This document shows positions 994 through 44,157 of a stretch of DNA of 64,000 nucleotides, one piece after another (position 1 is the first letter of the stretch; each line of letters begins with the position of its first letter). The stretch is taken from IMG/VR virus record IMGVR_UViG_3300037312_000757; one strand, given 5' to 3'. The notes beneath the pieces were generated by a model. The model did not search any database. It saw only the letters and a list, made by a program, of their open reading frames with translations, and was not told where the DNA came from. The DNA is from a virus. Its lineage: Duplodnaviria > Heunggongvirae > Uroviricota > Caudoviricetes. The position numbers were made by a program, and so were the translations under genes.

Positions 994-1197
994 TTAGTCA
1001 TTTCGCTTAATAACTACCGGCTTATTACCCTTTTTCTTCTTGGTCTTCTGAGGAGCAACCTGAGCATAAATGCTACGAGCTGCGGTCTCCTTGGGATCAG
1101 AAGAGAAAAATGGTTGTACCGATGTGGCAACACCGGCCGATGAACTAGCGCCACATGACGCATTCTCATTGAGACAAGCAAAGTCTGTATATCGCAT
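994..1197 (-). CDS. Small protein with basic C-terminus, possible head internal protein (MRYTDFACLNE-N...)
   Basis: Strong AAAGGAGGAG RBS before ATG 1197; late promoter core at 1224-1219; N-terminus resembles a T4 capsid-targeting leader ending L-x-E. Confidence 0.6.
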   Translation of the reverse strand: MRYTDFACLNENASCGASSSAGVATSVQPFFSSDPKETAARSIYAQVAPQKTKKKKGNKPVVIKRND

Positions 1198-1247
1198 AGT
1201 CTCCTCCTTTGTTACCACTATTTACAACCAATTATACGGAAACCTGG

Positions 1248-2252
1248 TTACAGTGCCAAATTAGGAATCTCCTTACCAATCTCAACCAACCGCTCACAAA
1301 ACAACTTCCAAATCAAATCCTTCTCCTCATACAACTCAGGATTCCCCAAAATACACGCTCTGACACTCTCATACGTCTCCAACGCCTCAGGACAAATACC
1401 CTCACCAAACAACTGTCTGGCAATGAATACTGGGTCGGTAGACGTCTTGGTGATCAACTCATCCTCAGAATATGCATCGATCTCATCCGGGTAACGAGCC
1501 ATAAAGAATCTCGGAAAGAAATCACCCACAAATTCATCAACATTCTGAGCAGTAACAGGGATCATCTTCTTGACATATCCCTTACCATCCTTCCGCTTAG
1601 GAGCAAATCGCCCACCATGAACCAAACCCTTATCATGATTCAAGGTGTACCCCAATCTCCCAACCATCTCCCCAGGATTATACTCATGATCCGATTCCAA
1701 TACCATGGTCCAATCAGATAACGCCTTCGCCACAGCCTTGATCAACTCAGTTCTATGGCTACCCGAATAACGACTGGTACCAGGAAAAGGGCTCCAATGA
1801 GTAAACTCCAATAACTCAACCTCACCCAACATATAATCAACTTGGTGCCATCCACTACCAGGAACTAATACTCGAGTATAAACCTGATTGATAGATGGAT
1901 TGATCTTCACATTATCACTACCATATCTCTCCATAAGGAAAGATACTAGAGAGTCATACGTCCAGTCAGAAGACGATACCGCTATGTCTACATCACCACT
2001 CAGGTCCTTCTTACCAGTAGACCCCAATGTCCTCAAACCATTCTTCACGAATAATTCATGGAGGTTGTAGAACATGTCGCCGTTATCACTGGCTCTATCA
2101 GATGTTTGTGTCAAACCCAGGTAGAACTCTTCAAATTTGGCGGGGTCATATTCCTGGTCCCGGAGCTCGAACAGAGTCAGAACCCAGGCACAGATACGGA
2201 TGCTGGTATGGCGTGGAACATCAACAACGTTGTCAAATGCTTTTCCGCCCAT
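1248..2252 (-). CDS. Pol-beta-superfamily nucleotidyltransferase-like protein
   Basis: hGS-x8-DxD motif (LGSTGKKDLSGDVDIAV) and a third acidic residue in QVDYM. Confidence 0.7.
   Translation of the reverse strand: MGGKAFDNVVDVPRHTSIRICAWVLTLFELRDQEYDPAKFEEFYLGLTQTSDRASDNGDMFYNLHELFVKNGLRTLGSTGKKDLSGDVDIAVSSSDWTYDSLVSFLMERYGSDNVKINPSINQVYTRVLVPGSGWHQVDYMLGEVELLEFTHWSPFPGTSRYSGSHRTELIKAVAKALSDWTMVLESDHEYNPGEMVGRLGYTLNHDKGLVHGGRFAPKRKDGKGYVKKMIPVTAQNVDEFVGDFFPRFFMARYPDEIDAYSEDELITKTSTDPVFIARQLFGEGICPEALETYESVRACILGNPELYEEKDLIWKLFCERLVEIGKEIPNLAL
2041..2133 (-). repeat. Single inverted copy of the 42-kb A/B element, inside the NTase CDS
   Basis: 2109-2133 matches the reverse complement of 42164-42188 at 24/25; 2041-2064 matches the reverse complement of 42420-42443 at 21/24. 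Confidence 0.9.
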
Positions 2253-27389: not shown

Positions 27390-28979
27390 TTAGATATTCA
27401 GACCAATTTCATTGCCTTCCGCATCCAGTTGGCCATCCATCGCGTGTTCGTACTGTGACAGGATTTGCTGTTCCATGTCTTCATCGCCACCCGCTTGTTC
27501 AATGGCACCAAGGAATTCTTGTGCATCTTGACCCTGCAGATACAGACTCGCACCAGTTACGGCATCAGCAATTTGCACATTACCCATTGTGTCTGTGACA
27601 TAGCTGTAACGATGTTCACCACCAATAAACTCATTCAGATGTGTATCTGATTCGTCCATTTCGTGTGGCACGTGTTCTTCAAGCTTACCAGCCAATTGGT
27701 GGATTGCATGCTTACAGTAGTCCTTAGCATCAGCATCACTCATTGCTTCGCTTGACAGCTTATGTGCCAGCTTTGTGTAGCCTGTTGGTGTTAGCTCGAC
27801 ATCACCACTGATGATTGCTGAATCGTGAATGCCAAGAGCATGGAGCAGGTTGTGCAGACGCTCGATTACTTCTGGTGGAATAGCTCGCTTGATGATGTCC
27901 ATCACACCTTCTTCCAAATCGTCTTCACCTTCACGGCCCAGATAACCCCAGCTATCAACAACGGCTTGAATCACTTGTTGAGTCAGTTCTGGTGGGACAA
28001 TGTGTTGACCTGCGATAGTTGCCAAAATGCCTTCGTAGCAAGCTTCCTTACCTTCTTCATGTGTCATGCCTGGCTGTACCCAGTCTGAAGCGTGACTGTC
28101 CAAATACATACGATTGATCTTATCAACGTAACGCTGAACTTCTGGATCCAAAGACTGAGCTGCTTCATCAACCTCACCCTCCGTTACACCAAGATCACCA
28201 CCATGATAATCGACCATAAAGTCATCTACATATTTTTGTGCTGACTTTACACCAAGACATTCTTTAACAGCTTTGTCCAAGATTCGTGCTGCTTGCAAAT
28301 CGTCATAACCCTTAGCAATCATAGCATTAATCATCATGTAGATTGCATCACCATCAGGATAATCAGAAACAAAGTTTTGGAATTGCGTTGCGATACGACG
28401 CAATGCTGCCTTTTGTCTTGCTGCCTTTTCTTCTTCTTGCGCTACCAGTTCGGCTTTCTGCGCATCACGGTCTTGAGCCATACGCTGTTTGTTCTGCTGG
28501 GCCAATTGCTTTGCCCATGAAGGACCAGCCTCATCTACTTCTTCCGATTCACCAACTGGTGTATCATTGTCTGCTTCTGGTGCATTCAGGCTGGCTTCGA
28601 ATTCTGAACGTGGTACTGTGTTTGTAGAACCGTCAGCATCGCGGTAAGTAACGAACATCTTACCAGCAAATTGAACCGTTGCGTCGGATGGCATACCGTC
28701 AACGTAGCGCGTAACGGTTTGACCTTGTGACAAAGTAGTTTGTGGTTCGTCAGATGGTTGTTCTTCACCTTGCATTGGTTCTAGATCATCTTCGTCAACC
28801 ATCGGATTGTCACCCTGGTTGTTGATCATGCGAACTGGCAGATCAGCTTGACCTGGTTTGCTGGCGATTTGCGTAACCTTGTGAGTGCGTGGCTCGACGT
28901 GACCGAAGTCAAAATCGGCGTTTTCATTCAGCTTAACGCCAGCCAGCTGCAACATGCGCTTAATGTCTGATGTGCTCAT
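27390..28979 (-). CDS. Acidic multi-segment protein, putative processed head protein
   Basis: N-terminal RMLQLAGV; recurrent LNE/VDE/VTE/LEE/MDE sites between segments. Confidence 0.65.
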   Translation of the reverse strand: MSTSDIKRMLQLAGVKLNENADFDFGHVEPRTHKVTQIASKPGQADLPVRMINNQGDNPMVDEDDLEPMQGEEQPSDEPQTTLSQGQTVTRYVDGMPSDATVQFAGKMFVTYRDADGSTNTVPRSEFEASLNAPEADNDTPVGESEEVDEAGPSWAKQLAQQNKQRMAQDRDAQKAELVAQEEEKAARQKAALRRIATQFQNFVSDYPDGDAIYMMINAMIAKGYDDLQAARILDKAVKECLGVKSAQKYVDDFMVDYHGGDLGVTEGEVDEAAQSLDPEVQRYVDKINRMYLDSHASDWVQPGMTHEEGKEACYEGILATIAGQHIVPPELTQQVIQAVVDSWGYLGREGEDDLEEGVMDIIKRAIPPEVIERLHNLLHALGIHDSAIISGDVELTPTGYTKLAHKLSSEAMSDADAKDYCKHAIHQLAGKLEEHVPHEMDESDTHLNEFIGGEHRYSYVTDTMGNVQIADAVTGASLYLQGQDAQEFLGAIEQAGGDEDMEQQILSQYEHAMDGQLDAEGNEIGLNI

Positions 28980-41009: not shown

Positions 41010-42095
41010 TTAGAAATCCGCTTTCGGAAGAATAGCCTTGCTCAATGGCTGCTTCTGCTGGATCACAGTACCATCGTCCAGTGTGGAGGTCTTCTGGTTC
41101 TGGATGAAGCTTTCGAGCAAACGACTTGCCATACTCCAGTCTTGCTGGCGATAATCAAGCTCTTGACGGATCCACGAGCCATTTTCGTCCTTGCGATACA
41201 ACACGTTTGGTTCATAGTCCAGTCGCAAGTAGTAATCACCAGTCGAAGCGTTGTCTGGGAATGCATTCCCAGATCCTACTAGCTGAGCGCCGTTTGGAGG
41301 TACACCGTCACCAGCAAATACCCATGGATATTGGTTTCCAAGTTCTTCACCAGGAACGATGTAGTATTGGCGAGTTTCGAAGTAACGAGCAGACACATGT
41401 GTCTTCGCTTCCTCAACCACAGAATTGTCAATGCCCATGGTTGCGGCCACGTTTGACATCAAATCACGCAACTTGGTATCTGTTTCGAGACCAAATGGAT
41501 CCAATGCGTTCTGGCTGAGGATTTGATCGTATTCCTGGGAGTCTGTCAGTGGCTTGCACTTGATACGCCAGATATGAGGATACCAAGTCTGAGAGTAACC
41601 ATCACTTGCTCGAGTTGCGTCCTCAATGGAGTAAAACTTGTTGATCGCCTTCGCCTCAGGATCAAGCAACGCATCATCACGAAGGTGAGGGAGTTCGATC
41701 ACATCACCAGACATGAGCTTGCGCCCAATGAGCTTTATCATGTCGTTGAGGTGCAATTCAATGAAGATAGTGTCGTTGTCCAGGAAGAGGCCAAACTGAC
41801 TCAGGTCGAATTCTGAGTCCTGAATGTTGTAGATGCCACGCAGTTCGTAGACGTCTGGTGCGTAGGCTCGATCTCTGTTCTCCAGGAACAGAACATCTTG
41901 GATCTTTGTCTCACCACCAGCTGCAACTCCTGTTGGATTCCCATCCTCATCTACTCCATTGGGATCTTGGACACCAATGTATTTGTGGACTAGGACAGCA
42001 GTTCCACTGATGGAGAAGTATTCGGCTATGGAGCGGTCCAGGAACTTGTAGTTGTTGGACTTCTGTCCAGAGTTCCAGATGGATAGTTTTGGCAT
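41010..42095 (-). CDS. Neck protein (gp14-like)
   Basis: IQDVLFLENRDR, DLSQFGLF, GDVIELPH; clustered with gp13/gp15. Confidence 0.75.
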   Translation of the reverse strand: MPKLSIWNSGQKSNNYKFLDRSIAEYFSISGTAVLVHKYIGVQDPNGVDEDGNPTGVAAGGETKIQDVLFLENRDRAYAPDVYELRGIYNIQDSEFDLSQFGLFLDNDTIFIELHLNDMIKLIGRKLMSGDVIELPHLRDDALLDPEAKAINKFYSIEDATRASDGYSQTWYPHIWRIKCKPLTDSQEYDQILSQNALDPFGLETDTKLRDLMSNVAATMGIDNSVVEEAKTHVSARYFETRQYYIVPGEELGNQYPWVFAGDGVPPNGAQLVGSGNAFPDNASTGDYYLRLDYEPNVLYRKDENGSWIRQELDYRQQDWSMASRLLESFIQNQKTSTLDDGTVIQQKQPLSKAILPKADF

Positions 42096-42163
42096 GTGTG
42101 TCTCCCTCTTGTTGAGATATTTATCGGGAGCTTCATATGGCTGATTATCGTGTCGTGGAAAAA

Positions 42164-42471
42164 TGAAGAGTTCTGCCTGGGTTTGACATCATCCGTGAAG
42201 GGTCCCAGACCCTGAAAATGATTGATTACCTCCATGAATATTCGTTGATATTTGGTTTATAAGTGGTGTTACCACTACCAATTATGAGGAGTTCTCTCTG
42301 GGTTTATTACTATCAATGATTAGTTTGGTAACCTCCATGATGTCTTTCTTGGTATTATTCCTCACGAATAATGGTGAGTTCTCTCTGGGTTTGGTAATAC
42401 TCGTGAGTGTATTTGGTTACCTCCATGAGTTCTTCGTGAGGAATTCCATTGAAGTTCTTTCATGAGGAATT
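42164..42471 (+). repeat. Alternating A-B repeat array (3x), candidate replication origin
   Basis: A=GAGTTCTnyCTGGGTTT at 42168, 42289, 42376; B=wTTGrTwACCTCCATGA at 42221, 42324, 42412; two AGTTCTT...TGAGGAATT at about 42428 and 42453. Confidence 0.85.
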
Positions 42472-42575
42472 GGTATTGGGAAGTGATTATTAGGTGGAAC
42501 CACCATTGTATATTGGTATGAGTATTAAATTTTGTGTGTTTTGCGATAAATATTATGGTTATGGAGGGGGTAGTG

Positions 42576-43352
42576 ATGAACACACCTAATCAGATTAGTG
42601 GTCGTATGCGCCTGATAAAGGAATTGCAGTTGCGTCTTGGTGGTGGGATGGTTGATTTGGAGTTGGATCCTGAGCATTATGACTTGGCGGTTCAATATGC
42701 GTTGGATCGTTATCGCCAGCGTTCGACCAATTCATTGGAGGAGTCGTATATCTTTTTGGATCTTCAGCCTGAGGTGACTCAATATACGATGCCGAATGAG
42801 GTTCAGGAGGTTACGAAGGTATTTCGTCGTGGTATTGGTGGTAATCAGGGTGGTCCTCAGATTGATCCATTCAGTCTTGCTTTTTCGAACAATTTGTATT
42901 TGATAAACAATCCTGGTGGTATGAGTGCTGGTGGTAGTGGTACTTTAGCCACATATGATTTGGCGATGCAATTTCAGAGCCAAGCTGGCCGCATGTTTGG
43001 TCGTGAGTTGTTGTTTCAGTGGGAGCCGGTAAGTCATCGTATCACATTTGACCGTGCTTTTGTGGCGGTTGAGACCATATTGCTTCAGGTATGGAATACT
43101 CGTCCTGAGGAGGTATTGTTTGCTGATACGTATGCACGTCCATGGTTGCGTGATTATGCGACTGCGGTGTGCAAGCAGATGATGGGTGAGGCACGTGGTA
43201 AGTTTTCGCAGATTGCTGGTCCACAGGGTGGTTTCACATTAAATGGTGAAGCTTTGAAGACTGAGGCGGCGGCTGAGATGGAGCGTCTTGAGAAGGAGCT
43301 CAAGGATCTTATCGATCAACGTGCCGGTGGATACGGTTTCAGTATCGGATAG
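42576..43352 (+). CDS. Neck protein (gp13-like)
   Basis: LRLGGGMVDLELD, WLRDYATA, GKFSQIAGPQGGFTLNG; late promoter core at 42547. Confidence 0.88.
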   Translation: MNTPNQISGRMRLIKELQLRLGGGMVDLELDPEHYDLAVQYALDRYRQRSTNSLEESYIFLDLQPEVTQYTMPNEVQEVTKVFRRGIGGNQGGPQIDPFSLAFSNNLYLINNPGGMSAGGSGTLATYDLAMQFQSQAGRMFGRELLFQWEPVSHRITFDRAFVAVETILLQVWNTRPEEVLFADTYARPWLRDYATAVCKQMMGEARGKFSQIAGPQGGFTLNGEALKTEAAAEMERLEKELKDLIDQRAGGYGFSIG

Positions 43353-43392
43353 AGCTAAGTTACGAGTTCTTTTTTGGTTAATAAATACCAAT

Positions 43393-44157
43393 ATGGAACT
43401 TAAACAAAAACTTCAAAATTACTTGGTGGCCAATACTGATCGCCACAATACTAAATGGCTTAACAGTAGAGACCCTGAACTTTGGGTCTCTATTCTTAAC
43501 GCAACTTCTTTTCTCCCCGAAACAGCGGCACCAAAGCAGCGTTGTTGGCATATCATCAACGACTCGTATGCTATACCAACTTGTCCAATAACAGGTAACA
43601 ATGTTAAATGGCAAGATAATCGTTATTTGACGTATTCATCTATTTCAGCCGCTTCATCAGACCCTGAACTATACCAAAAGAAAGTAGATACTTATATTTC
43701 AAAAACAGGGTTCAAAGGACATTGGAAGAATAATCCAGAAGTTAAAGAGCAGTGTCGGGAAACTTTTGCAAAAACAAAAGCTCAAGGAAAACATAAGAAA
43801 GTTGTGCGTTCGGAAACTTGGAGAACCAAAGTTCAAGCCACTTGGGACAAGAAATATGAAGAACAGAATTTAGCTGATTATGAGAAGTATAGAGTTGTTG
43901 TTAACAAAATAACACGCAGGAATTACACAAAATATAAAAATTTGATTGAAACTAATGGTTTGACCAAGTGCAAAGAAAATCATCTAGATCACATCTTTAG
44001 TGTATCTGAGGCCTGGAGGAATGGAGTAGACCCAGAAATTGTTGGTCATTGGACAAATCTACGCGTCATACCTGCTGTGGAGAATATGTCAAAGAATGCT
44101 AGAAGTGATAAAACGTTGGAACAATTGTATGACGATTACAAGAATGCCATTCAGTGA
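43393..44157 (+). CDS. Free-standing HNH homing endonuclease
   Basis: HLDHIFS...NLRVIPAVENMSK; AT-rich; flanked by duplicated gp13 3' end. Confidence 0.8.
   Translation: MELKQKLQNYLVANTDRHNTKWLNSRDPELWVSILNATSFLPETAAPKQRCWHIINDSYAIPTCPITGNNVKWQDNRYLTYSSISAASSDPELYQKKVDTYISKTGFKGHWKNNPEVKEQCRETFAKTKAQGKHKKVVRSETWRTKVQATWDKKYEEQNLADYEKYRVVVNKITRRNYTKYKNLIETNGLTKCKENHLDHIFSVSEAWRNGVDPEIVGHWTNLRVIPAVENMSKNARSDKTLEQLYDDYKNAIQ

Follow-up and report, generated by a model that had tools for sequence, protein, structure and literature searches.

A dispersed hairpin repeat in a T4-related jumbo phage is followed by one-way, kilobase-scale G/T-rich tracts: candidate sites of replication initiation

The window analysed here is a stretch of 64,000 nucleotides that corresponds to the reverse strand of positions 104,518-168,517 in a 523,836-bp virus record with direct terminal repeats. 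By its gene content, the phage is placed among the T4-related jumbo myoviruses. The T4-related content includes a gp13-type head-tail adaptor, a gp15-type sheath stabiliser, a lysozyme and TATAAATA-like late promoter boxes. Among GenBank phages, weak gene-level or DNA matches were found to Agrobacterium phage Atu_ph07 and Sinorhizobium phage Phosso, and nothing stronger. The phage (G000) was compared with a 290-kb relative (G001), to which its DNA is ~72-80% identical, with a 457-kb relative (G002; gp13 58% identical), and with other IMG/VR and metagenome contigs.

Near 42 kb of the window, a non-coding gap holds three copies of a two-part element made of motifs A and B (Table 1). The gap had been described as lying between the gp14 and gp13 genes. 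This label was wrong, as the gap extends from a virion structural gene to the gp13-type adaptor gene. The reported alternation A-B-A-B-A-B is present on the plus strand, and the units follow each other at 121 and 87 nt. The array sits between two outward-facing late-type promoter boxes and is therefore upstream of both flanking late genes. Genome-wide, the arrays at 67.1, 95.7, 126.3 (the 42-kb locus of the window) and 522.1 kb each start 19-50 nt behind an outward-facing late-type promoter box; single units have no such box at this distance.

Table 1. Features at the two element-bearing sites of the window
Feature	Position	Strand	Remarks
G/T-rich tract downstream of copy 4	1100..2000	-	GT 0.54-0.70 per 100 nt, then 0.42-0.46
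Nucleotidyltransferase-like gene	1248..2252	-	GS..DxD motif; GT3 0.71 overall
Element copy 4	2041..2140	-	A 2129-2113, 40-nt spacer, B 2072-2056
Virion structural protein gene (phrog_11591)	41010..42095	-	Divergent from array; unskewed
Late-type promoter box of the divergent structural gene	42117..42126	-
Element copy 1	42158..42260	+	A 42168-42184, 36-nt spacer with its own GGGTC/GACCC hairpin, B 42221-42237, short palindromic tail
G/T-rich tract on element strand	42240..43380	+	GT 0.58-0.72 per 60 nt
Element copy 2, short-spacer class	42279..42346	+	A 42289-42305, B 42324-42340
Element copy 3, short-spacer class	42366..42445	+	A 42376-42392, B 42412-42428, tail hairpin to 42445
T4-late-type promoter box CGATAAATAT	42544..42553	+	23 nt upstream of the gp13-like start
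gp13-type head-tail adaptor gene	42576..43352	+	GT3 0.80

From alignment and predicted folding, the A-B pair is one unit of a family of imperfect-hairpin repeats of ~100-120 nt. The layout of the unit was derived from 40 non-identical units of this phage and its relatives. Its 5' block consists of ~12 weakly conserved bases and the conserved GAGTTCTnYCTGGGTT, and its 3' block of the conserved AACCTCCATGA and a short palindromic tail of the GAATnATTC type. The spacer between the blocks is 23-34 or 41-49 nt long and falls into several subfamilies unrelated in sequence. In the minimum-energy fold, GGGTT of A pairs with AACCT of B in 37 of the 40 units, and this closing helix contains a conserved G.U-type pair. 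The spacer is predicted to fold on itself into a hairpin in all 40, despite its differing sequence. The folding energies are only modestly below those of shuffled controls (mean z -1.1), so the support for the fold lies in the recurrent architecture. The hairpins are not followed by T runs, one weak site excepted. As to the identity of the unit, a known RNA family and a sigma-70 promoter were both rejected: the unit matched no Rfam family, and no sigma-70-type promoter was found in or near the elements. A perfect 12-bp palindrome, CCTCCATGGAGG, recurs between units, upstream of gp13 in relatives (L095:3350-4000, L096:1500-2150) and at ~226.3 kb of the genome. Motif B resembles half of it, which hints at a common DNA-binding protein.

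Motif A matches four times in the window, where 0.03 matches are expected by chance, and 23 times in the genome (reversed control, 1). The preliminary description had spoken of two sites. Both of these are real, but the genome carries ~20 complete A-B units at ~15 loci, located at ~67, 96, 126, 166, 197, 226, 265, 308, 342, 370/374, 418, 467/469 and 522 kb. Five loci are tandem arrays of 2-4 units with irregular spacing (59-163 nt), and nine or ten hold a single unit. All copies but one or two lie outside long ORFs. The gaps between loci measure 28-54 kb, a more regular spacing than random placement would give. For the 15 unmerged loci, the gap lengths have a coefficient of variation of 0.47 against a random mean of 0.91 (P=0.002); with two close pairs merged, a post hoc step, it is 0.29 (P about 2e-5). 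Such regular spacing fits initiation sites. A decayed unit at 27,735 of the genome (30,417 in G001) has an intact A and a B with a 1-nt deletion, lies in an ORF of ~340 codons and shows no downstream skew; its inclusion makes the spacing more regular still.

Single units at 370-375 and 466-470 kb of the genome lie between tandem small paralogous ORFs (110-135 aa) that share an N-terminal W..E/L..N/G motif. At these places the unit extends with its 3' tail over the start codon that follows, and no clear ribosome-binding site is seen.

The positions of the loci are syntenic between this phage and G001, and no presence/absence polymorphism of units was seen between the two. Orthologous units of the two phages do not always have spacers of the same subfamily, and this points to exchange among copies. 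The element is absent from G002, as are tracts of the kind described below. Separately, G002 has at 1-23 kb (L207-L208) a continuous ~23-kb stretch with an A/C-rich plus strand (GT about 0.37) that has no counterpart in the genome of the window.

The second site in the window is within a coding sequence rather than intergenic. The inverted copy reported ~40 kb from the array was found on the minus strand, with no mismatch to the degenerate pattern in A and three mismatches in B. Its 25-mer differs at one position, as claimed. The claim of a 24-mer with three mismatches holds for the 17-nt core of B and fails for the full 24-mer, given a 1-nt indel directly after the core. The host gene encodes a nucleotidyltransferase-like protein that matched no Pfam or PHROG family. 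In several jumbo phages this gene family adjoins an RNA-ligase-like gene (weak PF09414 matches; L228:2103-3011, L231:294-1289), an adjacency that suggests an RNA repair or modification module.

Copy 4 is translated in frame as ~40 residues (..EEFYLGL..NLHELFVKNG..). In homologs of ~272 aa, a conserved N-terminal helix runs straight into the LGSTGKK..GDIDIAV motif with no insert. In this phage and its closer relatives, ..EFYLGL..NLHELF.. sits between the two. By this alignment, copy 4 is an in-frame insertion of ~40 codons relative to the shorter homologs. Because one copy is such an insertion in a gene, the element was mobile at one time. The converse reading, that the units are decaying fragments of the nucleotidyltransferase-like gene, was ruled out: only A and B are conserved across the 40 copies, and the copy in the gene is the insertion relative to its homologs.

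Downstream of each intact copy, the strand that carries it is rich in G and T for 0.4-1.2 kb. A footprint of ~1 kb of strand-specific C>T and A>G change had been proposed for the two window sites, and this was borne out: the footprint begins at the motif and runs one way. Mean GT on the element strand in successive 200-nt bins downstream is 0.58, 0.63, 0.59, 0.58 and 0.55 before returning to 0.51; upstream it is 0.50-0.53. The downstream rise, to GT 0.58-0.63, holds for every one of the 20 copies over the first 800 nt. In an unbiased scan for tracts of at least 300 nt with GT of at least 0.61, the genome yielded 37 tracts, of which 13 start within 400 nt of a same-strand element (~0.4 expected). 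At 197 kb, the copy with a degenerate B marks the start of a fourteenth. When examined one by one, the loci at 67 and 521 kb conform to this pattern as well. The association extends to motif copies elsewhere. In G001, a tract was found at all eight intact loci and at neither of two A-only sites. In other contigs, GT downstream is 0.55-0.67 for true units and 0.43-0.57 for chance matches to a loose pattern, which served as internal controls.

The skew in the window also goes beyond ordinary coding-strand bias. Against a genome mean GT3 of 0.51 (sd 0.06; 773 ORFs), the gp13-like gene and ORF 1248-2252 rank first and fourth of 773. Third positions of the gp13-like gene are A3 0.11, C3 0.09, G3 0.35 and T3 0.45, and earlier hand counts of 40 G to 19 C at 42601-42720 and 10 G to 38 C at 1201-1320 were exact. 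The tract at 42 kb spans a non-coding leader and the entire gp13-like gene and ends abruptly at ~43380. Beyond it, at 43380-44157 (+), lies an A-rich ORF that probably starts at 43394 rather than 43288, behind a AATAAATA box of its own (43380-43387); its endonuclease VII/HNH-like matches are weak (phrog_1035, phrog_5104). It cannot be aligned with G001, and may be an inserted homing-endonuclease-like gene that truncates the G/T tract.

The preliminary description had suggested iteron-like origins. A classical iteron origin, in which tandem A-B units bind an initiator, adjacent DNA melts and replication proceeds in both directions, would agree with the tandem arrays at five loci, and the palindromic tail of B could bind a dimer. 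The origin of phage lambda likewise has iterons, inside a gene. The units are mostly single copies, however, and have the form of an imperfect hairpin instead of a phased direct repeat. The single-unit loci still carry a full tract, the arrays are irregularly spaced, and no set of at least three phased direct repeats per origin was found. Furthermore, the skew is strictly one-sided, with no opposite skew upstream, and no initiator gene was identified. An iteron origin is thus very improbable. The proposed contrast with T4, whose origins were said to depend on promoters and R-loops and not on iterons, was overstated: T4 oriF and oriG are R-loop-based, but oriE carries iterons, which also counts for the iteron reading (PMC3016281).

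A different kind of locus was observed at 515.3-517.4 kb of the genome (L181:2800-4900). A palindromic motif of the TTCCTCTGAGGA type occurs at least 12 times in this ~2-kb non-coding region, and skew diverges from the region both ways: left of it, at 514.1-516.5 kb, G and T are enriched on the minus strand, and right of it, at 516.8-517.4 kb, on the plus strand. This locus represents another type of skew centre, with skew in both directions, and makes a better candidate than the A-B units for an origin of the iteron type.

The compositional change in the tracts follows a single axis. Base composition is A 0.234, C 0.167, G 0.274 and T 0.325 in the tracts, and A 0.268, C 0.227, G 0.240 and T 0.265 upstream. 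C falls by 0.06 as T rises by 0.06, and A falls by 0.034 as G rises by 0.034. Since the purine fraction is 0.508 in both, the whole shift on the element strand consists of C to T and A to G changes. Synonymous and non-coding sites account for most of it, and codon positions 1 and 2 have hardly moved. No dinucleotide context was detected: odds ratios in the tracts equal those in the flanks, and on this ground a context-specific deaminase (APOBEC-like or CpG-driven) was rejected. An enriched oligomer, such as a Chi-like or primase site, was also rejected, as none exceeds the prediction from composition. Tract GC is 0.44 against 0.47 in the flanks, and a discrete AT-rich block is not seen. Between strains that are 99% identical, SNPs occur at 5.0 per kb in tracts and 3.1 elsewhere; the tract figure is based on only 22 SNPs, and their spectrum shows nothing distinctive.

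The direction of the genes in the tracts varies. The gp13-like gene and the nucleotidyltransferase-like gene point the same way as their units. Those that run antisense inside tracts include several genes conserved in G001, a gp5-like hub/SLT (transglycosylase) gene and an amidase-like gene. Coding-strand or codon-usage bias was therefore rejected, as the skew spans non-coding DNA and crosses real genes antisense. Explanations from codon usage and mRNA composition are excluded because the skew is non-coding or synonymous, context-free and independent of coding sense.

The skew also depends on the unit. In the nucleotidyltransferase-like gene of this phage, GT3 is 0.47 before the insert and 0.78 after it. 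Homologs with an intact unit, from three phages, have 0.47-0.54 before the unit and 0.67-0.78 after it; a homolog with a decayed insert has 0.52, and three homologs without an insert have 0.48-0.57. Likewise, GT3 is 0.71-0.81 in gp13 orthologs with upstream units (88-93% identical) and 0.39-0.58 in 76 gp13 orthologs without them. These two comparisons indicate that sequences become skewed where they stand, if an intact unit lies upstream of them. Import of G/T cassettes from elsewhere was rejected for the two window genes, which are unskewed before the unit or in unit-less homologs; the tracts, moreover, lack paralogs.

It might be asked whether the G/T tract is itself selected, as a loading zone for a recombinase, a template rich in primase sites or a sequence that favours R-loops, with no passive mutational footprint. 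Relatives keep the tracts as a feature even at places where the sequence itself is not conserved, and composition changes sharply after the unit. Little weight is nonetheless given to this explanation. A change exactly along the transition axis at constant purine content is predicted by mutation bias and required by none of these functions, and the lack of any oligomer beyond composition also speaks against it. Moreover, enrichment in T would weaken an RNA:DNA hybrid, not strengthen it.

Another explanation is that the unit is a selfish palindromic repeat, comparable to Rickettsia palindromic elements (RPEs) or MITEs, whose own copying, for example by hairpin nicking and strand displacement into the flank, leaves the footprint with no gain to the phage. 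The unit is short, non-autonomous and multicopy, with ~20 copies of ~100 nt; it forms an imperfect palindrome and has subfamilies defined by the spacer. One copy is inserted in frame in a gene, as described for the Rickettsia elements (PMC10969869), and the decayed copy at 27,735 also lies in an ORF. The differing spacers of orthologous copies imply exchange, and indels of ~0.75-1 kb between relatives occur directly downstream of some units. Against this stand the synteny across phages that differ by ~25% in DNA, the lack of presence/absence polymorphism, and an even spacing that speaks against random insertion. A and B are strongly conserved among relatives while the non-coding DNA between units cannot be aligned. 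No Y1 HUH nuclease or transposase gene was found in the genome. Neither insertion polymorphism nor terminal inverted repeats with a target-site duplication were found; no such duplication is evident at the in-gene insertion, and the terminal repeats of the units are weak. The tract DNA has no paralogs elsewhere, and nothing suggests captured sequence. A host-derived MITE was rejected, as 185,579 prokaryote genomes held no copy of the element, a result that also weighs against a selfish repeat in general. A selfish origin of the footprint is accordingly judged improbable.

Transcription alone could also produce such a pattern. On this view the unit would be, or adjoin, a phage-specific promoter or 5' leader, from which short transcripts of ~1 kb would be made at a high rate or with a tendency to form R-loops; part of them would be non-coding antisense RNAs. 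Deamination changes would build up on the non-template strand, and the unit would have no role in replication. Both the polarity and the C>T/A>G signature match what is expected of a non-template strand. At four or five loci the unit takes up the whole interval between small ORFs of one orientation, with its 3' tail reaching the next start codon, and the G.U-type pair of the closing helix suits an RNA. In addition, both window tracts stop at gene ends, beside the promoter of the following gene. However, neither a sigma-70-like nor a late-type promoter was found on the element strand inside the units; late-type boxes lie beyond the units or on the opposite strand. Between the array and the gp13-like gene lies a late promoter that belongs to this gene, and at no fewer than six loci transcription from the unit would have to cross real genes antisense, the baseplate hub among them. 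Other structural genes of the window that are presumably highly expressed show no such skew, and a regular genome-wide spacing has no obvious transcriptional rationale. This explanation, the antisense transcripts and deaminated non-template strand included, is considered unlikely.

Any account has to accommodate the element, its hairpin architecture, its distribution and a transition skew that is polar, dependent on the element and independent of gene orientation. The account tentatively preferred here, as a distinct possibility that falls short of being probable, is that the units are dispersed, one-directional replication-initiation sites with a shared sequence, at which synthesis would be primed from an R-loop, a D-loop or a nick. 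An intact unit would mark a site of duplex opening. From it, a process would run one way, 5' to 3' along the element strand, for ~0.4-1.2 kb, treating the two strands differently and independently of the local genes. DNA synthesis initiated from an R-loop, D-loop or nick would be the most plausible such process. The element-bearing strand would be either the displaced strand or the newly and less accurately made one. At unconstrained sites, it would gain C>T and A>G changes over evolutionary time. Single-stranded exposure would yield this transition signature; alternatively, it may come from repeated, less accurate synthesis of the element strand dominated by G.T mispairs. We thus infer that the cause is single-strandedness or error-prone synthesis linked to replication initiation.

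This account was ranked first because even spacing in a very large genome favours initiation sites. The polarity, the association of tracts with units, the mutational signature, the independence of orientation, the dependence on the unit and the precedents in other systems were also counted in its favour, as was the repeat locus at 514-517.5 kb, where the same polarity diverges to both sides. Several observations were counted against it. The elements have no sigma-70-type promoter in or near them and no marked AT-rich unwinding element. In T4 no motif is common to the origins (PMC3016281), so one sequence shared among origins would set this phage apart from T4. The in-frame insertion fits a selfish repeat equally well, and tracts that end at gene ends would also suit a transcription unit. 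The SNP excess in tracts is weak, and no gene for a PolA-type polymerase, a Y1 HUH enzyme or, in a search that had no positive control, a T7-type RNA polymerase was found in the genome.

A more far-reaching version, to which only a low probability is attached, would make the unit a portable, self-contained, one-way initiator of unwinding or synthesis, in effect a mobile origin. Wherever such a unit landed, even in a gene, the next kilobase would come under strand-specific transition pressure. The giant phage would have fixed ~15 of them evenly as a multi-origin system with a shared sequence, analogous to yeast ARS elements, and local fast-evolving zones beside each site would be a by-product.

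To our knowledge, the replication of half-megabase phage genomes is not understood, and most T4 origins are poorly defined. If replication initiation is the correct reading, this evenly spaced family defined by sequence would give a whole clade of uncultured jumbo phages a set of candidate origins, or of sites of loading or nicking, that can be put to the test directly. Such sites could then be found in other genomes by computation alone, from a repeat at the head of a short, polar tract of keto skew. The tracts also show that a small DNA element is able to impose a local strand-specific mutational regime on neighbouring genes, essential structural genes included, and a regime of this kind matters for models of phage gene evolution and codon usage.

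Each of the known systems comparable to the A-B units shares some of their properties. In T4, oriF and oriG are units of ~100 bp that combine a MotA middle promoter with an AT-rich unwinding element; an R-loop primes one-way leading-strand synthesis, and the non-template strand is single-stranded (Kreuzer & Brister, 2010; PMC3016281). The phage units resemble them in size (~100 nt), in one-way polarity and in belonging to a T4-related lineage, with the difference that initiation is here inferred. No promoter firing into a unit was found when sigma-70-type and late-type boxes were examined. The A-B units further differ from oriF and oriG in the reuse of one hairpin sequence at ~15 loci, the lack of a recognisable promoter and a compositional footprint on the scale of a kilobase. 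We know of no report of such a footprint for T4. The ColE1 origin matches the tracts in length scale and polarity: its polymerase-specific mutation footprint starts at the RNA/DNA switch and reaches ~1.3 kb in one direction (Allen et al., 2011; PMC3167613). That footprint, however, was produced experimentally with an error-prone polymerase, and the plasmid has one origin and no dispersed family. The ColE1 zone is also the work of DNA polymerase I, whose gene was not found in the phage.

In vertebrate mitochondria, strand-displacement replication leads to C>T and A>G changes, most strongly at synonymous sites, in the strand left single-stranded. This mutational axis is common to the phage tracts (for mitochondrial strand asymmetry, see also PMC10730292). 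The mitochondrial asymmetry is genome-wide and graded by the time spent single-stranded, whereas the phage has zones of ~1 kb, each tied to a unit. RPEs and prokaryotic MITEs are short, palindromic, multicopy repeats that can sit in frame in genes and be translated (PMC10969869), as the ~40 residues of copy 4 are. RPEs have not been reported to skew their flanks, to be evenly spaced or to be positionally conserved like the phage units. The PeSL cassettes of T4-type phages, which pair an early sigma-70 promoter with a terminator stem-loop (PMC2839356, PMC4122927), are likewise conserved intergenic stem-loop repeats in T4-type genomes that adjoin indel-prone, variable DNA. The phage units differ from them in having no early sigma-70 promoter, and no compositional footprint has been described for PeSLs. 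No description of a repeat-anchored, kilobase-scale polar skew in phages was found in literature searches. The unusual and well-supported property of the present family is the polar skew anchored on its repeat.
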